DNA of 64,000 nucleotides. It comes from a virus. The stretch lies in the IMG/VR virus record IMGVR_UViG_3300045988_067909. The stretch is one strand, 5' to 3'. The first letter of the stretch is position 1. Every line of letters begins with the position of its first letter. This document shows positions 13,775 through 59,488 of this stretch, piece after piece. The notes below the pieces were generated by a model that was not told the DNA's origin, did not search any database, and saw only the letters and a program-made list of their open reading frames with translations. The translations under genes and the position numbers were made by a program.

Positions 13775-13846
13775 CGTAAAACTTAGTTTTTTCAGTTATA
13801 TACTATAATGGTAATATCATGGTTATATTATTTAGTTTACATATAG
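13775..13846 (+). promoter_or_regulatory. copy of conserved promoter-like repeat (CGTAAAAC...TTCAGTTATATACTATAATGGTAATATCATGGTTATAT)
   Basis: Member of a repeat family of at least 8 copies containing TATAAT. Positioned 15-25 nt upstream of a strong RBS and ATG. Confidence 0.45.
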
Positions 13847-13858
13847 GAGGAATATATC

Positions 13859-14242
13859 ATGAGCATTTCTGTAGGTATCAAACGTGTTGGTGTAGATCAT
13901 AACCACAATCAATATAAATATACAGTTTTGAGCATTGATGAAATCAAAGCTCAAACTGATAGCTTGATTGATTTATTAGATAGATGCAAACCTATCTTGA
14001 CAACACAAAAAGTTCTTACTGCATTAAGAAGTGATAAAGTGGTAAATTATCCACTAGGTCACGAATATGCTATTCTTGAAATGAAGAAGCAAGTAAGCGC
14101 TATCTTCGCAAATATCAGAGCAAAATATGCTCACAACGGTCTTGGCTTCAAGATCGAAACCATTAACAAAATTGAATCTTCTGTAAAATACAGAATTATG
14201 TGCATTATGAAAGATGCATATAAGATTCAAAATCAAAAATAA
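13859..14242 (+). CDS. hypothetical protein (promoter-cassette gene)
   Basis: 127-aa ORF with RBS ataggaggaatatatcATG, directly behind the promoter repeat and followed by a terminator. Confidence 0.5.
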   Translation: MSISVGIKRVGVDHNHNQYKYTVLSIDEIKAQTDSLIDLLDRCKPILTTQKVLTALRSDKVVNYPLGHEYAILEMKKQVSAIFANIRAKYAHNGLGFKIETINKIESSVKYRIMCIMKDAYKIQNQK

Positions 14243-20944: not shown

Positions 20945-21300
20945 ACACAAAAAATAATACATGGGTAGAGAGGATGCCCTACCCATGTATATCTTTATCT
21001 ATACACCATATCTATGATATAGTCGCATGCGCCATAGTGGCACCATATGCTCTATTGGTGTATCTTTATCTGGTAAATGTTCACCAGACTCAGTACCAAC
21101 AGGTATAGATTCAGATGCTAGTCTTCTAGCTTCGAGCTCAGGAATCTGAGCGCAAAGCGAGAGGAGAAACTCTCTGCTCATAGGGGATTCACCTCCTTAT
21201 GACAAGTAGACATAAGTCTACAAGTGTATGGGTAAATTTAGATACGGCTATTGGTACTAGCTGTATCTACCATACACATTTATAGTATACAATCGTAAAA
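20945..21300 (-). repeat. copy 1 of a ~350-bp repeated cassette (promoter, structured leader, 60-aa ORF, terminator)
   Basis: High nucleotide identity to 21305-21715, and in inverted orientation to 47900-48290. Contains terminator catgggtag...ctacccatg and leader hairpins. Confidence 0.6.
20999..21181 (-). CDS. conserved small protein, cassette copy 1 (60 aa)
   Basis: MSREFLLSLCAQIPELEARRLASESIPVGTESGEHLPDKDTPIEHMVPLWRMRLYHRYGV. RBS aaggaggtgaatcccctATG. Paralogues at 21365-21547 and 48031-48228. Confidence 0.55.
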   Translation of the reverse strand: MSREFLLSLCAQIPELEARRLASESIPVGTESGEHLPDKDTPIEHMVPLWRMRLYHRYGV

Positions 21301-21304
21301 CAGT

Positions 21305-21715
21305 TTACATATAAAAAATAATACATGGGTAAGTGGGGATACACCTACCCATGATTATCTTTATCTATACCCCATATTTATGGTATAGTCGCATGCGCCA
21401 TAGTGGCACCATGTGAACTATTGGGGTATCTTTGTCTGGCATCCGTTCACCAGATACAGTACCTACTGGTATGGTTTCGGATGCCAGTCTTCTCGCTTCG
21501 AGCTCAGGGTTCTGAGCACAAAGAGAAAGAAGGACATCTCTTGTCATAGGGATTCACCTCCTTATGACTTATGGGTTATAGTCCCATAAGTGTATGGTTA
21601 TATTTAGATACAGCTACTACTAATAGCTGTATCTACCATACACGTTTATAGTATACAATCGTAAAACAGTTTACATACAGAAACTCCCATATAGGCAATG
21701 CCTATATGGGACTTC
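21305..21715 (-). repeat. copy 2 of the repeated cassette
   Basis: Tandem to copy 1. Same promoter-like TTGTATACTATAAA box, leader hairpins and terminator. One leader hairpin has a different sequence but preserved pairing. Confidence 0.6.
21365..21547 (-). CDS. conserved small protein, cassette copy 2 (60 aa)
   Basis: MTRDVLLSLCAQNPELEARRLASETIPVGTVSGERMPDKDTPIVHMVPLWRMRLYHKYGV. About 80% identical to copy 1. Confidence 0.55.
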   Translation of the reverse strand: MTRDVLLSLCAQNPELEARRLASETIPVGTVSGERMPDKDTPIVHMVPLWRMRLYHKYGV

Positions 21716-38574: not shown

Positions 38575-38650
38575 CGTAAAACTCTTTTTTTTTAGTTGTA
38601 TACTATAATGGTAATATCATGGTTATATATTTATTAGTTAATTAGAAAGG
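38575..38650 (+). promoter_or_regulatory. conserved promoter-like repeat copy
   Basis: cgtaaaactctttttttttagttgtatactataatggtaatatcatggttatatat, followed by RBS aaaggag and ATG. Confidence 0.45.
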
Positions 38651-38661
38651 AGATATATATC

Positions 38662-39183
38662 ATGTATTTACAACAATTAACAGAAACTTCCGGGGTCGAA
38701 ATCACACATTGGTTTGAAAATACTTTCTTTATTTCTAACAATGTTACAAAACGTGGCATCATTGATGTTGGTGATGGTGGTAAAGTCGAACGTGCTTCTT
38801 TAGAATACTTTTCCAATTATATTGGAGCGGTCGAAATTGTTAAATGGGTACCGAATTCCAATAGTGAAATTGAGGAGTATTTTACCAAGTATCTCGCAAT
38901 GGTGATTGCTATGGATCACGATATCGAAAGTGATCCAAACAAAATTGAAGCGATGAAAACATTGCTCAATTTGCACGGTACTTTATTCATTGAAAACGAT
39001 ACTACAGTATTTAAGTTTAAAGACTTAGGCACTATTGCACCGTTTGAAGATGATAGCTGGTACGTCTGTCCTGATGGTGCAGACAATGTACTTTGTAAGA
39101 CTTTAGCCGAAGCGGCTAAAGTGATGGCAGAGTATAAAGCAAAATTAGAAGAGAAACCTGTTCTCTTCAAAAACATTATCTAA
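38662..39183 (+). CDS. hypothetical protein (promoter-cassette gene)
   Basis: 173-aa ORF between the promoter repeat and a terminator. Codon usage visibly GC-richer than the flanking genes. Confidence 0.5.
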   Translation: MYLQQLTETSGVEITHWFENTFFISNNVTKRGIIDVGDGGKVERASLEYFSNYIGAVEIVKWVPNSNSEIEEYFTKYLAMVIAMDHDIESDPNKIEAMKTLLNLHGTLFIENDTTVFKFKDLGTIAPFEDDSWYVCPDGADNVLCKTLAEAAKVMAEYKAKLEEKPVLFKNII

Positions 39184-39264: not shown

Positions 39265-39335
39265 CGTAAAACTGTTTTTTTAGTTGTATAATATAATGGT
39301 AATATCATGGTTATATATTTAGTTAATTAGAAAGG
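39265..39335 (+). promoter_or_regulatory. conserved promoter-like repeat copy
   Basis: cgtaaaactgtttttttagttgtataatataatggtaatatcatggttatatat. Confidence 0.45.
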
Positions 39336-39346
39336 AGATATATATC

Positions 39347-39805
39347 ATGAAATTCGTAATAGTACCTTGGTGGCAAAATGAAGACTATCTTGTAGTAAGA
39401 GCTATCCCTACTACGAAAGTAGAAAGGAACTCTTTAGAGATTCTAAAGTATGACATACAAGACGACTATGGTTATTGGGAACCACAAAAATTAGGGTTTG
39501 AGTTAGGCACTAAATACCTAAACGCCCTAGGATACCCAAACCTAACATTTTGGGGTGAGGATAGTCCGATAGAATGTCGGTTTGACCCAAGAGAACCAGA
39601 GGGTTATCAGTCTTACGATGTCACTGCTGCACCTCGAGATGTCGAGGTAATGGTTGCAGGCTATCGTTTACTAGGTCGTCATCGCAAGGTTGCCCGTATA
39701 CTTAAGGAAGTAAAAAGAAAAAATAAAGTATTCAATGAAGAAATTCTTCGTCATATGGATACTTGGGGATACCAAATTCCATACAGCACAGAGGAAGAAG
39801 AGTAG
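39347..39805 (+). CDS. hypothetical protein, paralogue of 43434-43844
   Basis: Shares AIPTTKVER, ILKYD and VAGYRLLGRHRKVARILK blocks with the 43434 gene. Confidence 0.5.
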   Translation: MKFVIVPWWQNEDYLVVRAIPTTKVERNSLEILKYDIQDDYGYWEPQKLGFELGTKYLNALGYPNLTFWGEDSPIECRFDPREPEGYQSYDVTAAPRDVEVMVAGYRLLGRHRKVARILKEVKRKNKVFNEEILRHMDTWGYQIPYSTEEEE

Positions 39806-39840: not shown

Positions 39841-39914
39841 AGAGTAATAAAAATTATGGTTATATAATATAGCTATGACTCATTGGTTATATTTAATTTA
39901 AAGGAGGATTTAAA

Positions 39915-42784: not shown

Positions 42785-42855
42785 CGTAAAACTCAATTAT
42801 TTCAGTTATATACTATAATGGTAATATCATGGTTATATTATTTATTATACACAGG
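42785..42855 (+). promoter_or_regulatory. conserved promoter-like repeat copy
   Basis: cgtaaaactcaattatttcagttatatactataatggtaatatcatggttatattatt. Confidence 0.45.
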
Positions 42856-42866
42856 AGGAATATATC

Positions 42867-43271
42867 ATGACTACAAACACAAACACAGCAACTTTATCTT
42901 TAGTTTCTTGCCCAGAAGAAATGATGGCTAATTACTTTAGCCGTATTTCTGCTGAAAAGGCTGAAGGTATGAAGAAAGAGATTTTTGCTAAGTCTCAATC
43001 TGAACTAGAATCTCTTGTTAAAGCACTTAACGAGAATTTTAGTGCAGATACTTTTAATAGTGCTTTAGGTGATAGTGTGTCTGAAGAGTTATTTAATGAC
43101 TCGGACAACCTAAGACGCCATCTAAAGGACGAAGCTATTTCCACTATTAGTAAAATCCGTTCTTTCGTTAAGAACGGAAATAAGCAAGCACTATCTATCC
43201 TAGATTGGATGGAAGGGCTAGCTGTAGAACAAGCTAGTGATATCGTTAGAATCATTGAAGATAGACGATAA
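42867..43271 (+). CDS. hypothetical acidic helical protein (promoter-cassette gene)
   Basis: 134-aa ORF with RBS acaggaggaatatatcATG. Confidence 0.5.
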   Translation: MTTNTNTATLSLVSCPEEMMANYFSRISAEKAEGMKKEIFAKSQSELESLVKALNENFSADTFNSALGDSVSEELFNDSDNLRRHLKDEAISTISKIRSFVKNGNKQALSILDWMEGLAVEQASDIVRIIEDRR

Positions 43272-43348: not shown

Positions 43349-43420
43349 CGTAAAACTCTTTTTTTTAATTGTATACTATAATGGTAATATTCATGGTTAT
43401 ATATTTATTATTTATACAGA
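43349..43420 (+). promoter_or_regulatory. conserved promoter-like repeat copy
   Basis: cgtaaaactcttttttttaattgtatactataatggtaatattcatggttatatat. Confidence 0.45.
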
Positions 43421-43433
43421 AAGGAATATCATC

Positions 43434-43844
43434 ATGAAACTTATAAAACGTCAATTCGAAGAAAATGCTTATGTATCCACAGTAGCCATCCCAACTACAG
43501 AGGTGGAGCGCAAAATGATCCAAGCATTAAAGTACGATTTGATTTCTGAGGAGCCAGAAATTTGTAACTGGCACCCAGAATGGTTAGGCGAAAGCCTAGC
43601 CATTGAATATGCTAATGCGCTTGGACATAGTTGGGTTGACTTCTATGGTACTGATGAGTACATGGTAGTAGTTGATCCAGAGGGCACGTATGTTATTACT
43701 GCAACCCCTAGTAATTTAGAAACATTGATTGCAGGTTATCGCCTACTTGGTCGCCATCGTAAGGTGGCAATGATCTTGAAAAAGATCAAGAAGCTTGGTA
43801 TTGAAGACATGGTATCAAACATGACACCAGGCCGTCAAGCATAA
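43434..43844 (+). CDS. hypothetical protein, paralogue of 39347-39805
   Basis: Shares VAIPTTEVER, ALKYD and IAGYRLLGRHRKVAMILKK blocks with the 39347 gene. Confidence 0.5.
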   Translation: MKLIKRQFEENAYVSTVAIPTTEVERKMIQALKYDLISEEPEICNWHPEWLGESLAIEYANALGHSWVDFYGTDEYMVVVDPEGTYVITATPSNLETLIAGYRLLGRHRKVAMILKKIKKLGIEDMVSNMTPGRQA

Positions 43845-45060: not shown

Positions 45061-45140
45061 CGTAAAACTTGATTATTTCAGTTATATACTATAATGGTAA
45101 TACAATGGTTATATATTTATTTAGTTAATTAATCAAGGAG
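45061..45140 (+). promoter_or_regulatory. conserved promoter-like repeat copy
   Basis: cgtaaaacttgattatttcagttatatactataatggtaatacaatggttatatat. Confidence 0.45.
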
Positions 45141-45150
45141 GATATTAACC

Positions 45151-45546
45151 ATGGCACTTTTACACGATTTAGAAAATTTAAGTGTGTTATCTTATAATGA
45201 AATTGTTGAAGGTATTAACAATTTCAAGCATACAATGAAAACATACTTAGATGAAACACAAGACATTGTAGACTTATTACTTTTCTTAAGTGATAGTATT
45301 GGGATGAGTATCCCGGTATTTTCAGATGAAGAAAAAGTAAAAATGTTTACCTTGGGTTTTGCATATTCCACGGCTAATATCGCATTATCTATTTTGGCAA
45401 AAAACAGTGCTATCACATTTGAAGAGCATTGTAATCTTGCTGATTTAGTCTTCGATTATCGCAGTGAGTTTGCAGAACTTGTTGCAACAAAAATTATTGA
45501 AGCATTTGAACGCAAATGTGAAGAGAATAAGAATAATGTAGCATAA
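45151..45546 (+). CDS. hypothetical protein (promoter-cassette gene)
   Basis: 131-aa ORF with RBS atcaaggaggatattaaccATG. Followed by hairpin aggggtggtttatccacccct at 45553-45573 and a T-run. Confidence 0.5.
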   Translation: MALLHDLENLSVLSYNEIVEGINNFKHTMKTYLDETQDIVDLLLFLSDSIGMSIPVFSDEEKVKMFTLGFAYSTANIALSILAKNSAITFEEHCNLADLVFDYRSEFAELVATKIIEAFERKCEENKNNVA

Positions 45547-47910: not shown

Positions 47911-48290
47911 ATAAGTAAACTGTTTTATGATTGCATACTATAATTGTGTATGGTAGATACAGCTAGTAACGTTAGCTGTATCTAAATATAACCATACACT
48001 TGTAGACATAAGTCTACGGGTCGAAAGGAGGTGACTCCTATGACTAGAGAACGAGAATCTATTCTCGCTATCTGTGCTCAGATTCCTGAGCTCGAAGCTA
48101 GAAGGCTAGCTTCTGAAAGCATCCCGGTTGGGACTGAATCTGGTGAAAGATTACCAGACAAAGATACTCCAATCGTCCACATGGTACCGCCATGGAGGAT
48201 GCGTCTATACCACAAATATGGGGTATAGATAAGGAGTATACATGGGTAAGGATATAGAACATTCTTACCCATGTATTATTTTTTATACTT
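47900..48290 (+). repeat. copy 3 (inverted orientation) of the repeated small-gene cassette
   Basis: Promoter-like gattgcatactataattgtgtatgg, leader hairpins agatacagctagtaacgttagctgtatct and gtagacataagtctac, ORF, and terminator catgggtaagg...cttacccatg. Matches the 20945-21715 cassettes in reverse complement. Confidence 0.6.
48031..48228 (+). CDS. conserved small protein, cassette copy 3 (65 aa)
   Basis: MTPMTRERESILAICAQIPELEARRLASESIPVGTESGERLPDKDTPIVHMVPPWRMRLYHKYGV. RBS aaaggaggtgactcctATG. Confidence 0.55.
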   Translation: MTPMTRERESILAICAQIPELEARRLASESIPVGTESGERLPDKDTPIVHMVPPWRMRLYHKYGV

Positions 48291-48312: not shown

Positions 48313-48390
48313 CGTAAAACTTAGTATTTTCAGTTGTATAATATAGTGGTAATAGAATGGTTGTATTATTTAGTATTAATTGAAAAGGAG
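48313..48390 (+). promoter_or_regulatory. conserved promoter-like repeat copy (diverged)
   Basis: cgtaaaacttagtattttcagttgtataatatagtggtaatagaatggttgtattatt. Confidence 0.4.
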
Positions 48391-48399
48391 ATATTAACC

Positions 48400-48687
48400 A
48401 TGATTACTCTATTAAAAAAGTATTATTTAGACCTTACTTTTGTATGCCTAGTTGTATTTGGCTTTGTAGTTGCTACAAAGCTAGTATATTTAACAGGTAT
48501 AGACTGGTGGAATTGGGAGATTCTCCCAGTTTCCGCTAGTCCAGCTCTAAGAGAGACTGCTGAAAACTACATGACAATTGCCCAATTAGAGGTGATTGGT
48601 ATGTATGTTTTCATGGGGTTACTTGCCCCATTCGTTGCGACTATGTATGTAGCATATCGCAACGATCCTGAACTTCATCAAAAGTAA
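48400..48687 (+). CDS. small membrane protein (promoter-cassette gene)
   Basis: RBS aaaggagatattaaccATG at 48400 (the ORF track begins upstream at 48334). TM segments LTFVCLVVFGFVVA and VIGMYVFMGLLAPFVATMYV. Confidence 0.45.
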   Translation: MITLLKKYYLDLTFVCLVVFGFVVATKLVYLTGIDWWNWEILPVSASPALRETAENYMTIAQLEVIGMYVFMGLLAPFVATMYVAYRNDPELHQK

Positions 48688-49852: not shown

Positions 49853-50275
49853 ATGAAAAGTCAACTAATCTATGATATAAACAAGAAGTTTATTGTAACC
49901 ATTCTAAAGAATATAAAAAACAACCCTAATGATATTGTCTTTGAATTTAAAAACTTCTATCTTTCTATTGATGTAAATAAAGAAAGAGAACAAGCTTCTT
50001 TTGTAATAACTGATAAAGATGGTAAAGAGATTATATCATTCTTTAAGCACTACATGAAGTATACAGCATATAGCAACTGTATGCCAATAGAAGACTTCTT
50101 AAGTGACCATACTACTAATGAAGCATTAAAGGATTTTATATTTGATGGTGGTAAAGCTATCAAATATCTATACGGTGGTGGTCCTGGCTATAGGATTATA
50201 ACCAGAGAGTTATACTTGCTATTAAATGAGCATGCTAAAGCGATAACCAAAGATAATTTCAGTTATATACTATAA
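49853..50275 (+). CDS. hypothetical protein
   Basis: RBS aacaggaggaattatctATG. The 3' end of the ORF contains a copy of the promoter-like core ttcagttatatactataatggtgatac. Confidence 0.45.
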   Translation: MKSQLIYDINKKFIVTILKNIKNNPNDIVFEFKNFYLSIDVNKEREQASFVITDKDGKEIISFFKHYMKYTAYSNCMPIEDFLSDHTTNEALKDFIFDGGKAIKYLYGGGPGYRIITRELYLLLNEHAKAITKDNFSYIL

Positions 50276-50545
50276 TGGTGATACTGTGGTAGTTATTATC
50301 TTATCTAACACACCCCACAGGTGCATAAACTCTAATACCCAACTATACTCCCTTTGGGTACTCTCCTTTAAAATAAATAATATAACCATTGAAAATGAAC
50401 GGAAAAATTATTTATGCACCTATCTATAATATTCCCTATACAATAATGAATATAATCACCCCTCTACCACAGTATCACATTGAACTTCGGCAAGACACTC
50501 CCTTTCGGTGTCTTGCCACCCCTTATTTATTTTTTGCCTATTTAG
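50255..50545 (+). ncRNA. candidate structured non-coding RNA (promoter-like box to terminator, no RBS-bearing ORF)
   Basis: Promoter-like core at 50255-50285. 16-nt long-range inverted repeat ggtgatactgtggtag (50278-50293) / ctaccacagtatcac (50461-50477). Strong terminal hairpin ggcaagacactccctttcggtgtcttgcc with a T-run (50491-50540). The only internal ORF (about 54 aa) lacks an RBS. Confidence 0.25.
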
Positions 50546-50613
50546 CTTGATTTCAACGGGAATAGTAAGTTTTTACAACTCTGACCACATACCATTAATA
50601 GGAGGAAACAATC

Positions 50614-52491
50614 ATGCTTCATATATACGACCAATATTTTGATGGGTCAGACTTAACGTTACTGAACTCATTCTATATAAAATCTAAGAAAGACAAAGCT
50701 GGATGGACATCTCCATATATAGTTATGGTAGCCAGAGACAACTCTACTGGTGAGAAAGTTAGATGTGAGATAGAGAATCCAGAATATATATACTTTGTGG
50801 CTAAAGACCCACAATCAATAACTCATCATTATGATTACATTGAACGAGATAAGGTTATACCAGTTAAGTGTAATAATGGTGAGCTTCTTAAATCTATTGC
50901 AGACAATACAGGTAATATAGAATACTTCTATAATAATATCAAGTCTAGAGACTTTGGTGCTAATACTAAGTTGCATACTTGTAATACAGTATTCTTATCT
51001 GATATGGAATTATCCGATCATTATAGATTTTGGTTTAGTCGGAGATTCCCTAATGAAATTAAAGTTCCACCAACTAAAGCATATTTCGATATTGAAGTTG
51101 ATATCTCAGAGATTGCTGGGGATTTCCCAGAACCAGGTGAAGCACCTGTATCTGCAGTAACTTATATCTTTGGTAATAATATCTATACGTATATTCTTAG
51201 AGATCATCGTAATGTACTTGTAGAAGAATTTGAATTAAAGTATAGAAAAGGTGGATTAGATGGTGAATTGTTTAGTCTTATTCGTTCTACAGTTGGTGGT
51301 AATGATAGGGTTAAACACTTTGGTTTAGAGAATATGAAATGGCATGCTTTATTTTTTGATGATGAAAAGGAGCTATTACATTCTTTATTCGATAAAGTTA
51401 ATGAAGATAAACCTGATTTCATGTTAGCATGGAACATGGCGTTCGACTTGCCATATATCATTGCTCGTATAGAAGACCAATTTGGTGAGAAAGCATCTGA
51501 CTATATTTGTCATCCAGACTTCTATACTAAGGAATGCTATTACTATGTAGATGAACGTGCAGGTCAAGCATTAGCTGAACGTGGTGACTATGCACAGATA
51601 TCTTCATATACAGTATACTTAGACCAAATGATTCAGTTTGCTTCTAGACGTAAAGGACAAGCTGCTTATCAATCTAATAAGTTGAATGATATCGGTCAAC
51701 AAGTTGCTGGTGTAGCTAAGTTAGACTATCATCATATTACTAGAGATATTGGTGAGTTACCATTTAAAGACTTTAAGACATATATATTCTATAACGTAGT
51801 CGACGTTATAGTACAGGTATGTATTGAAAAAGAAACTGGTGATATTGATTACGTATACAATACTACAGTTGATACAAATACTAGATATGCTAAGGCTCAT
51901 AGACAAACTGTATATCTTAATAATCAACGTGTTAAGATATATTACAATGATGGGTTCGTTCATGGTAATAATATCAATAAGTTTAAAGAGAAACCTAAAG
52001 AGAAGTTCCCTGGTGCATTCGTAGCAGATCCTAATCTTATTAGTGATTTTGCTAAGATTAAGATTAATGACCAACCAGTCTTGCTATTCGATAACTCAGT
52101 AGACTTTGACTTTAGTTCTCTATATCCTAGTATTATTCGTGAGTTCAATCTATCAGCACCAACTCAGATTGGTATGATTAAGTTTAATAATGAAGCACTA
52201 AGTGGTGCTAAGTTCATAGAAGATATAGCTACAGATGATAGTATCACATTCTGTCATAAGTGGTTTAATATGCCTAATATAGAAGAGATGGTACATATCA
52301 TCAAGATAAACGCACCAAGAATTCAAACTAAGAAACCATTCATGGCTTATACTGATGGTATACTTGGTGAAGTTGAACCTGATACATATACAACTTTAAA
52401 CATGTTTAGACATTCTGATACAGAAACACAATCTATGTTTAAACCTAAAGAATTATCCAAAGGAGAGATTGAAGATGGCGAAAGAGTATAA
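50614..52491 (+). CDS. family B DNA polymerase, N-terminal portion (3'-5' exonuclease domain plus polymerase motif A)
   Basis: RBS taataggaggaaacaatcATG. Exo I AYFDIEVD. Exo II LAWNMAFDLPYIIAR. Exo III-like IFYNVVDVIVQ. Pol motif A DFSSLYPSII. The ORF ends before motifs B (KxxxNSxYG) and C (YGDTDS) appear. Confidence 0.75.
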   Translation: MLHIYDQYFDGSDLTLLNSFYIKSKKDKAGWTSPYIVMVARDNSTGEKVRCEIENPEYIYFVAKDPQSITHHYDYIERDKVIPVKCNNGELLKSIADNTGNIEYFYNNIKSRDFGANTKLHTCNTVFLSDMELSDHYRFWFSRRFPNEIKVPPTKAYFDIEVDISEIAGDFPEPGEAPVSAVTYIFGNNIYTYILRDHRNVLVEEFELKYRKGGLDGELFSLIRSTVGGNDRVKHFGLENMKWHALFFDDEKELLHSLFDKVNEDKPDFMLAWNMAFDLPYIIARIEDQFGEKASDYICHPDFYTKECYYYVDERAGQALAERGDYAQISSYTVYLDQMIQFASRRKGQAAYQSNKLNDIGQQVAGVAKLDYHHITRDIGELPFKDFKTYIFYNVVDVIVQVCIEKETGDIDYVYNTTVDTNTRYAKAHRQTVYLNNQRVKIYYNDGFVHGNNINKFKEKPKEKFPGAFVADPNLISDFAKIKINDQPVLLFDNSVDFDFSSLYPSIIREFNLSAPTQIGMIKFNNEALSGAKFIEDIATDDSITFCHKWFNMPNIEEMVHIIKINAPRIQTKKPFMAYTDGILGEVEPDTYTTLNMFRHSDTETQSMFKPKELSKGEIEDGERV

Positions 52492-53053
52492 CGTAGACTA
52501 TTACAATAACCTTATAAAGATGCTAAAATGTGATAGCATCTTTAATAGTGAGAATGATAATGTGCTACTTGGGTTTGGTCCTGGTATGTCTTATATGCAA
52601 ATTGTAGCACCACCATCAAATAAACCTATTGAGGGTAATGCTAATATTAATTGTCTTGATTTCAAGAACTGTATGAAACAAGAGAACTTTACATTCTTAC
52701 ATGATAACTATGAGTTTGGTCGTCAAGATATCTTAGATAAGTACTATACTATCTTGAGTTATATGGATACAAAGAACTTAGAAGTCCAATATAATAATGA
52801 AAGATTTGTAGACAAGTTCCAATATTTCTTAGATGCTAAAGCTAGTGATGGTGCTATTAAACTAGTAGTGGAAACTAAGAAAAGAGATTATGTATGTATG
52901 ATTTCTCGTGGTATCTTCCCTATCGTTAAAGGAGATAAGATGGAATTATACTTATATGATATTCCAACTACGTCTAAGTTTAAGCTATTAGTGTTTAGAC
53001 TATTCAAACGTAATGGATATATTATCGACCAAGTATTCAAATTATTATGCTAG
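52469..53053 (+). CDS. hypothetical protein overlapping the end of the polymerase gene
   Basis: 194-aa ORF in a different frame starting 23 nt before the polymerase stop. No nuclease or polymerase motif recognised. Followed by hairpin aggctatggctctctgggtcatagcct. Confidence 0.3.
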   Translation: MKMAKEYNVDYYNNLIKMLKCDSIFNSENDNVLLGFGPGMSYMQIVAPPSNKPIEGNANINCLDFKNCMKQENFTFLHDNYEFGRQDILDKYYTILSYMDTKNLEVQYNNERFVDKFQYFLDAKASDGAIKLVVETKKRDYVCMISRGIFPIVKGDKMELYLYDIPTTSKFKLLVFRLFKRNGYIIDQVFKLLC

Positions 53054-53140
53054 TAATGTATTTTAGGCTATGGCTCTCTGGGTCATAGCCTTTAAATGCT
53101 GAAACATCCTACTAATATGCTACTTTTTTCAAGGAGGTAA

Positions 53141-58513: not shown

Positions 58514-58613
58514 ATGTTTTCCTCCTTTAAAATCAAAAAATTTTACAGGTTAGTCATATTATAATATTACTAAACTTTTACATCTATGTTGGATATAAGC
58601 CTTATAGGGTGTA

Positions 58614-59354: not shown

Positions 59355-59488
59355 TATATATACCTCCTTCTTAATGAGTTGTTCAAGTATAGCAGTTTTA
59401 CAGGGTTTTTGTAAACCTGTTTTTTTTTTGATTGTATATTATAACTGTATACATAATTGGTTATATTTAATTTAAGGAGGAAACAATT

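Follow-up and report, generated by a model that had tools for sequence, protein, structure and literature searches.

Among the base-pairing small RNAs (sRNAs) of Firmicutes are RNAIII and the Rsa RNAs of Staphylococcus aureus, with UCCC loops, and RsaE/RoxS, with C-rich regions. The c4 antisense RNAs of phages P1 and P7 and the CI RNA of phage P4, all from temperate phages, are 70-80 nucleotides (nt) long, derive from operon leaders and act on the transcript from which they are cut, while DsrA and RprA acting on rpoS and RNAIII acting on hla are anti-antisense activators of targets in which an arm of the 5' leader pairs with the start region. To our knowledge, the regulatory RNAs of giant phages have barely been explored, and we know of none described for the AR9/PBS1-like lineage or for the uncultivated jumbo phages that abound in the human microbiome. 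Here we analyze a 64,000-nt stretch of viral DNA (IMG/VR record IMGVR_UViG_3300045988_067909; hereafter the window, with positions counted from its first letter), in which a predicted structured RNA of 259 nt lies on the + strand between an orphan open reading frame (ORF) and a gene for a family-B DNA polymerase (pol).

Small RNAs that derive from 5' untranslated regions (5' UTRs) by premature termination are frequent in giant phages, and 8 of the 11 mapped sRNAs of the giant phage 201phi2-1 are of this type (PMC11512511). The sRNA005 of this phage and the phiKZ sRNA upstream of gp182 are like the RNA proposed here in that a start is followed by a terminator within less than 250-350 nt, just before a conserved gene, and the giant-phage sRNAs likewise have a locus and a two-dimensional structure that are conserved in related giant phages (PMC11512511). 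They differ in belonging to phiKZ-like phages of Pseudomonas, whereas the window RNA belongs to AR9-like phages with hosts of low guanine-plus-cytosine (GC) content; no sequence relation is apparent, the two being set apart by description. The window RNA moreover precedes a DNA polymerase gene and not a tail gene, is larger (about 254-337 nt across relatives), has a long closing helix and allows a target set to be proposed from complementarity. For AR9, a phage with two multisubunit RNA polymerases, a report (PMC5312081) describes a conserved motif in the 5' UTRs of the early genes, which form one temporal promoter class; the likeness to the leaders treated below is one of description, and a homologue of the window RNA was looked for before the AR9 pol gene and not found. 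The window RNA falls into no curated family, its kind, that of phage leader-derived or base-pairing sRNAs, being a known one.

A preliminary description of the window, made from its letters, had proposed a structured non-coding RNA of about 250 nt at this place and had named folding, comparison with related phages and an Rfam scan as checks. RNAfold gives -65.2 kcal/mol for positions 50270-50535, compared with -34.9 +/- 3.7 kcal/mol for 200 dinucleotide shuffles, none of which was as good (z = -8.16). The proposal is further supported by the conservation of the locus, by 18 compensatory base pairs at about 60% identity, by G-U pairs that fit the + strand and by the lack of a conserved ORF. The predicted RNA and its flanks have the following parts.

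50240-50277 (+), putative promoter of a phage-specific class, cg.taa.c...tttcag-TTATATACTATAAT-G, a motif conserved in relatives.
50277-50535 (+), the whole predicted RNA, 259 nt, marked by the z-score of its fold, kept in about 30 contigs and matching no Rfam family or transfer RNA (tRNA).
50278-50292 (+), 5' arm of helix P1, GTGATACTGTGGTAG, which forms 15 perfect base pairs (bp) with 50464-50478.
50293-50318 (+), J1/2, the single strand AUUAUCUUAUCUAAC followed by the C-run CCCC (50313-50316), with invariant columns in alignments A1 and A2 and unpaired in all folds.
50319-50329 (+), 5' arm of helix P2, AGGUGCAUAAA, 11 perfect bp with 50411-50421.
50336-50360 (+), hairpin P3, in which UACCCAA and UUGGGUA enclose the C-rich loop CUAUACUCCCU.
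50361-50410 (+), central single strand inside P2, with the anti-Shine-Dalgarno-like CUCUCCUUU (50361-50369), the anti-leader sequence AAUAAAUAAUAUAACCAUU (50372-50390) and an invariant GAACG (50397-50401).
50411-50421 (+), 3' arm of P2, UUUAUGCACCU in group A (see below).
50429-50453 (+), hairpin P4, weak and AU-rich in this phage, with UCCCUAU in its loop.
50454-50463 (+), J4/1, unpaired AAUCACCCCU, in which CACCCC is conserved.
50464-50478 (+), 3' arm of P1, CTACCACAGTATCAC.
50479-50488 (+), linker with the conserved UGAACUYC, TGAAC being invariant in A1 and A2.
50489-50499 and 50507-50517 (+), arms of the 3' hairpin, 11 bp, with the conserved loop CCCUUUC.
50518-50535 (+), tail, presumed 3' end or partial terminator, with the conserved C-rich ACCCC and then the U-run UUAUUUAUUUUUU.
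50536-50613 (+), spacer to pol, outside the folded RNA, unstructured (z = +1.7) and highly conserved, ending with the Shine-Dalgarno (SD) sequence of pol, AGGAGGA (50601-50607).

P1 shuts the domain off as an independent unit. It corresponds to the long-range inverted repeat of the preliminary description, which is real and has 15 perfect bp instead of the 16 given there; the second perfect long-range repeat, P2, was missing from that list. The small hairpin caccccacaggtg, which the list did contain, is a trivial 3-bp stem that finds no support, and its GGTG belongs to the conserved P2.

The element was found once per contig in every related contig recovered (about 30 contigs of 243-270 kilobases (kb), from Human Microbiome Project-type and other human metagenomes), invariably between the upstream ORF of 140 amino acids (aa) and pol. 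One Japanese long-read assembly suggests an oral source for these relatives. Their sequences, named here by L numbers, form three groups.

Group A, 254-272 nt: the window and its close relatives, with the sub-variants L145, L146, L166 and L168.
Group B, 332-337 nt: L006, L008 and L165.
Group C, 299-307 nt: L009-L013 and L156.

Between groups, identity is 59-63% in the element, compared with 90-94% in pol, 81-92% in the 78-nt spacer and 85-90% in the upstream ORF. Taken together, P1, P2 and the 3' hairpin comprise 37 pairs, for which 97.1% of the alignment cells are paired in 13 sequences and 18 of which show changes on both sides; none of 500 column shuffles was as good, and when the partners were slid by 1-3 columns only 28-51% remained paired. 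In P1, 99.5% of the cells are paired over the 13 sequences and three pairs are changed on both sides (U-A to A-U, A-U to G-C, and U-A to G-C or G-U), with swaps of GUGG/CCAC to GAGG/CCUC and of GUAG/CUAC to GUGG/CCAC. The sequence of P2 is replaced with the pairing kept (GGCUCCGGAAA/UUUCCGGAGCC in group B, GCUUCGGA/UCCGAAGC in group C), and L146, L166 and L168 have further altered, compensated variants. The 3' hairpin has two-sided changes at 10 of its 11 pairs among relatives and a conserved loop, (A/C)UCC(C)UUUC. Hairpins P3 and P4 occupy the same positions in all groups with unrelated stem sequences, different lengths and loops that are always C-rich: in groups B and C the P3 hairpin is longer, of other sequence and has the apical loop CCCCCUA, and the hairpins at the P4 position are stronger, with a UCCC-containing loop. 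G-U pairs at several positions are consistent with the + strand only.

This comparative analysis has shown a conserved, single-copy, strand-specific and non-coding structured element between a predicted class promoter and a predicted hairpin with a U-run. Judged by its covariation, it is a real structured RNA without an Rfam family.

Compared with L006, L009 and L168, the RNA gene has sharp divergence boundaries, and the stem of the 3' hairpin is nearly wholly replaced. The fast divergence of the RNA suggests either that alleles are exchanged by recombination or that selection is diversifying. L168 presents the reverse case, as its 140-aa ORF is the fast part (76% nucleotide identity) and its RNA is 83.5% identical. 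A pattern scan for distant homologues in IMG/VR gave the same clade and one chance match (L140), and about half of the 25 matches of a metagenome scan were chance matches in unrelated DNA.

The Rfam scan (Rfam 15, gathering score) gave no match anywhere in the window. At permissive thresholds nothing overlapped it (E <= 10 in 50100-50700, E <= 1 in L006 and L009), the only matches being chance ones elsewhere or far below threshold. No covariance-model match was obtained for 6S RNA, phi29 pRNA, transfer-messenger RNA (tmRNA), tRNA-like RNAs, ribozymes or other curated families; ARAGORN identified no tRNA or tmRNA in the window, and a BLASTN search with the locus as query had no match among 50,697 phage records.

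The preliminary description had also noted about 230 nt free of ORFs with a ribosome-binding site, and this holds: the ORFs of the region (39-53 aa) are mechanical, have no such site and are not conserved in relatives. That one of them, for example the 53-aa ORF 50389-50550 or the 47-aa ORF 50286-50429, encodes a small protein is therefore hardly credible, the more so as no SD sequence precedes any of them, though the genes of this genome have strong AGGAGG sites. Copies of the locus that are 98% identical differ by frameshifting indels of 1 and 2 nt; the AUG at 50395 is absent from groups B and C, and in L168 the frame differs and stops after 17 codons.

The unpaired parts of the RNA contain a set of conserved motifs. 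All groups keep AUUAUYUUAUCWAAC followed by CCCC in J1/2, and across groups the loop of P3 reads CUCCCUU or CCCCCUA, the central strand ACUC(UC)CUUU and the tail before the U-run ACCCC or ACUCU. In groups B and C the central strand reads CUCCUUUCU, which we take to be identical to the 3' end of low-GC 16S ribosomal RNA. The C-rich, anti-SD-like unpaired motifs number seven and occupy corresponding positions in all three groups, and two GAAC motifs are conserved alongside them. The longest invariant block of the central region is the 11-mer AUAUAACCAUU (50380-50390), which is unpaired with a probability of 0.55-0.76 in each of 17 variants. In composition, C (24.3%) greatly exceeds G (10.8%; GC skew -0.25 to -0.53), and in the window RNA 25 of the 28 G are paired and 40 of the 63 C unpaired. 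This excess is the true signal of the region, rather than the higher local GC content of the preliminary description, which is not borne out (0.27-0.42, compared with 0.23-0.41 in the flanks, not clearly raised).

In being G-poor and in having unpaired C-rich loops and linkers complementary to G-rich SD sequences, including the loop of the 3' hairpin, the window RNA resembles RNAIII, the Rsa RNAs and RsaE/RoxS. It differs from them in that the Rfam search gives no homology, it is phage-encoded, its motifs number seven, its multi-helix fold is closed by 15 bp and it has an additional AU-rich antisense to mRNA leaders.

Directly 5' of the RNA lies an exact copy (50263-50277) of the 15-nt promoter-like motif TTATATACTATAATG. 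It overlaps the stop codon (50273-50275) of the 140-aa ORF 49853-50275, and the putative promoter of the RNA is carried in the final codons of this ORF, an overlap already noted in the preliminary description. The motif recurs seven times before genes, with exact copies at 13796, 42806 and 45082 and copies at 38596, 39284 and 43369 that deviate by 1-2 mismatches; every copy is on the + strand and shares further upstream sequence, cgtaaaac...tttcag. The putative transcription start of the RNA is G 50277, within +/-6 nt. The TATACTATAAT promoters, as this class is called below, are located before small orphan genes (127-173 aa) without family matches. There are 7-8 of them per 64 kb, a number compatible with the approximately 41 early promoters of the AR9 genome, and because of this density we take them to be an early-type, phage-specific class.

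With long inverted repeats adjoining a replication gene, and with ATGGTTATAT situated just downstream of the class promoters, a possible place for an operator, and in inverted orientation here, the element could also act as DNA, as a replication origin beside pol, a miniature inverted-repeat transposable element (MITE) or a set of operator sites. We consider this very unlikely. The MITE, and additional copies in general, were rejected, as the element occurs in single copy per contig and the P1 arms are found nowhere else in the window. The G-U (in DNA, G-T) pairs make the helices strand-specific, the promoter and the hairpin with its U-run frame the unit, and the helices are compensated while their sequence is free, the opposite of what is expected of a DNA site recognized by a protein.

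The mRNAs of the promoter class have the following leaders in the window.

13810-13861, 38610-38664, 39298-39349, 42820-42869, 43383-43436, 45096-45153 and 48348-48402 (+), class leaders, a shared 5' UTR of 45-55 nt.
42820-42869 (+), one of the predicted targets, made up of a class-mRNA leader and start, with the ATG at 42867; predicted net interaction energy -14.3 kcal/mol.

These other class mRNAs start with GGUAAUAnnAUGGUUAUAU(U/A)AUUUA..., and the SD sequence and AUG follow 45-55 nt further on. The leader set also drew on 97 further leaders from L080-L136, and 65 leaders are distinct in the clade. In the minimum-energy fold of 64 of these 65, the 5' motif nnAUGGUUAUAU pairs with the start-codon region and leaves the SD sequence in a loop, compared with 38% in a control whose 5' 22 nt were shuffled. 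The two leader bases that vary do so together with the start context (UC with AUCAUGA, UG with AUCAUCAUG, CA with UUAACCAUG). This looks like a class-wide hairpin, which in the models would either sequester the start codon or stabilize the 5' end.

Genes 39915 and 59489, neither of which has a canonical class promoter, carry extra copies of (A/T)TGGTTATAT in their leaders, at 39856-39892 and 59457-59466; among the 58 start regions ranked below as predicted targets of the RNA, these leaders take ranks 3 and 13. Three paralogous units were also observed.

47931-48230 (+), 20960-21300 (-) and 21320-21680 (-), units in which a class-like promoter precedes a leader of strong structure, with GUGUAUGGUAGAUACAGCUA...UAGCUGUAUCUAAAUAUAACCAUACAC and a second hairpin GUAGACAUAAGUCUAC, and an ORF of about 63 aa.

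The leader stems of these units covary in L006 and L009-L013, and the leader includes AUAUAACCAU.

We tentatively propose, as a reading that we prefer without being confident of it, that the RNA acts in trans, its central anti-SD and anti-leader strand, and possibly other C-rich loops, pairing with early-class mRNAs and altering their translation or stability. Transcription would start at the phage's own TATACTATAAT promoter, at about 50277, and the RNA would end near 50535, at the covarying hairpin and U-run 78 nt ahead of the pol start codon; read-through of the hairpin may supply pol mRNA. The accessible strand in P2, 5'-CUCUCCUUU...AAUAAAUAAUAUAACCAUU-3', would be antisense to two features of every class mRNA, its SD sequence and the conserved 5' leader motif AUGGUUAUAU(UAUUUAUU), and this leader motif would itself be the 5' arm of the hairpin that sequesters the start codon. 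Six more unpaired motifs (CCCC, CUCCCUU, UCCC, CACCCC, CCCUUUC and ACCCC) could pair with G-rich ribosome-binding sites.

As a reverse complement, AAUAAAUAAUAUAACCAU (50372-50389) matches 42829-42846 perfectly over 18 nt and 13819-13834 over 16 nt. No other exact antisense match of the element in the 64-kb window reaches these lengths, and both are in class leaders. The versions of groups B and C are perfectly complementary, over 12-15 nt, to leaders encoded in the same genomes. Since CUCUCCUUU is located directly 5' of the anti-leader sequence, one antiparallel duplex would span the leader motif and the SD sequence of the same mRNA. We calculated the interaction energy as the sum of the opening energy and the duplex energy, that is, corrected for accessibility. 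The cost of opening the RNA strand is mostly 3.5-5.3 kcal/mol (8.5 kcal/mol for three group-B leaders), the duplexes contribute -20 to -27 kcal/mol and the net energies are -5 to -17 kcal/mol, with group means of -9 to -10.5 kcal/mol in A, B and C, compared with about 0 for shuffled targets. In these computations the predicted duplex is always bipartite, comprising leader and SD sequence. When 58 start regions of the window were ranked, class leaders took ranks 1, 2, 4, 5 and 6, and rank 3 also has ATGGTTATAT (Mann-Whitney p = 4e-6).

Two other calculations were set aside. A whole-window RNAduplex scan was uninformative, being dominated by long loop-rich duplexes, with low scores for AU-rich pairings. 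RNAcofold of the RNA with the leaders gave about -2 kcal/mol, worse than shuffles; it was discarded as a test and replaced by the sum of opening and duplex energies because it has no means of fitting an intermolecular helix into the closed P1/P2 multiloop and the native leaders fold on themselves.

The proposed action has a likeness in the c4 and CI RNAs, which are phage-encoded, made from leaders and pair with short targets in mRNA leaders to mask ribosome binding or stop transcription. Here, by difference, the proposed targets are many separate transcription units with one shared leader, in a jumbo phage of lytic type. As to the direction of regulation, we lean towards repression by masking of the SD sequence, activation by freeing of the AUG being equally compatible with the sequence. 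As in the anti-antisense activators, an RNA mimicking the start-region arm could open the class-leader hairpin; the adjacent anti-SD motif argues for repression. A wider version, which we hold to be possible but doubtful, is that this single RNA is a regulon-wide switch: the class mRNAs would share a leader arm that hides the start, and the RNA, made from the same promoter class, would retune the early class as it accumulates, so that temporal control would be exerted by an RNA rather than a protein factor and the fast, compensatory turnover of the stems would result from an arms race or from the swapping of alleles.

Regulon-wide targeting of leaders would be new, if true. The element, for which the comparative support is unusually good, offers a defined and testable prediction, a 19-nt antisense strand plus an anti-SD sequence set against a family of leaders predicted to sequester the start codon. 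Were this borne out, it would reveal how a temporal class is coordinated post-transcriptionally in a phage with RNA polymerases of its own, and would provide a compact RNA part for translation control in low-GC bacteria. If the RNA were only a leader of pol, it would still be a new structured cis element controlling a replication gene.

Several points weigh against pairing in trans. The ranking of start regions mostly restates sequence complementarity. Covariation between RNA and targets is impossible, both partners being invariant, and the leader sub-variants occur in all groups. The pairing of anti-leader and leader is AU-rich and energetically modest. Sequences like AUAUAACCAU are also partners of the leader motif in cis, both around the starts of class mRNAs and within the leader of the 47931 type, and the central motif could for this reason be an evolutionary remnant or a protein site. 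The three deep sequence groups provide few independent compensatory events. Three further points are related to the polymerase gene. Termination may be weak, given the gap of 5-6 nt between hairpin and U-run, and the RNA may be mainly the 5' UTR of pol. The 78-nt spacer, on which the choice between cis and trans turns, contains neither the class promoter motif nor AACA-N6-TA, and a motif of the spacer does not recur, which favours a role in cis, as do structured leaders recurring before pol in distant relatives.

The last arguments bear on the main rival explanation, that the RNA is purely a cis-acting 5' leader of the pol mRNA, transcribed from the 50263 promoter and without targets in trans. 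It could act by partial termination at the 3' hairpin, through RNA stability, as an RNA of the processive-antitermination type or by binding a replication or translation protein in autoregulation. We regard this as a real but not a probable alternative. The promoter at 50263 is the sole recognizable one upstream of pol, synteny with pol is strict in all contigs and the geometry of hairpin and U-run is non-canonical, suggesting leaky termination. The preliminary description had listed a terminal hairpin with a T-run, and both are present, the hairpin being strong; the T-run (50523-50535, 13 nt and U-rich) is, however, separated from the covarying 11-bp hairpin by ACCCC, the conserved C-rich spacer being 5-6 nt long, and a terminator scan made no call. 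In other terminators of the window the U-run follows the stem immediately.

The pol genes of other phages can be cited for both sides. The AR9 pol gene has an annotated early promoter and a leader of about 100 nt, which accords with a role in cis, but this leader is unstructured (z = +0.7). In distant relatives whose pol is 41-46% identical, a TATACTATA-type promoter is also found before pol, directly upstream in L074 and about 190-210 nt before it in L065 and L067/L071, where a C-rich structured leader ends in a terminator-like hairpin 35-45 nt from pol.

L067 3790-3985, L071 3776-3988 and L065 1600-1812, analogous but unrelated units before pol, consisting of promoter, leader and hairpin.

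The C-rich single strand of these units is AUCCCCUCUCCC in L067/L071 and CCCCUUUUAUCUAAC in L065, recalling J1/2 of the window RNA. The clade with 52-57% identity in pol (L015-L055), on the other hand, has neither the 140-aa ORF nor the RNA at the pol locus, and together with AR9 this indicates that pol expression needs no such leader. In a search for an antiterminator, no upstream sequence proved to be conserved as a partner of one or the other 3' hairpin arm (the best were 4-9 nt long, included G-U pairs and differed from group to group). As no antiterminator alternative is conserved, the RNA is not a classical attenuator switch, and P1 closes the domain independently. A leader acting only in cis would also leave unexplained the invariant, accessible antisense to other mRNA leaders and the seven C-rich loops, and the spacer, far more conserved than the RNA, could hold an unrecognized type of promoter. 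Because distant relatives have a promoter of this kind and the spacer holds neither motif, the 50263 promoter is probably the pol promoter too, and the RNA would then be a leader-derived species arising by premature, probably partial, termination. Such an origin is compatible with the trans-acting RNA that we propose, with read-through feeding pol.

Fast-evolving stems around fixed motifs, as found here, are typical of scaffolds for binding sites, and the seven C-rich and two GAAC motifs could accordingly form a decoy, an RNA that sequesters a host or phage RNA-binding protein by its C-rich, G-poor single strands and by mimicry of the class start region. Candidates would be Rho, a nuclease, a protein that has a KH domain or binds poly(C), or a repressor of early-mRNA translation. 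The mimicry is seen in AUAUAACCAUU, which resembles AUAUUAACCAUG in the 3' arm and start region of class mRNAs, and in group C the likeness reaches AACCAUnAAAAAACAA..CG of the start of a neighbouring gene. We consider a decoy unlikely, as the collinear anti-SD and anti-leader sequences are more simply explained by RNA-RNA pairing and no candidate for the protein partner has been found. The adjacent 140-aa ORF is an orphan without a Pfam or PHROG family, has 11 homologues (69-96% identity), all confined to this phage clade, and gives an AlphaFold model of low confidence (mean predicted local distance difference test score 49).

The downstream gene (50614-52491, +) encodes the N-terminal part of a family-B DNA polymerase, with the exonuclease domain and motif A; its closest cultured relatives, at about 30-34% identity, are those of the uracil-DNA jumbo phages AR9/PBS1, Staphylococcus S6 and Yersinia phiR1-37. 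The ORF ends about 100 aa past motif A (DFDFSSLYPS), and the polymerase is apparently split, like that of AR9 (g132, 'partial catalytic domain'); the remaining catalytic domain must be encoded elsewhere. A 194-aa ORF that overlaps pol (52469-53053) has no family match. Other products of the window are an AR9-like phage RNA polymerase beta-like subunit, gyrase-like topoisomerase subunits, an NAD ligase, SbcC, a portal-like protein and a tail sheath protein, and the source is an uncultivated AR9/PBS1-like jumbo phage. The AR9 late-promoter consensus is AACA-N6-TA (PMC5312081). Copies of it, at 53103-53114 (+), 58579-58590 (-) and 59372-59383 (-), precede three genes, namely those for the portal-like protein and the tail sheath and one other, which suggests that this phage shares the promoter type of the non-virion RNA polymerase of AR9.

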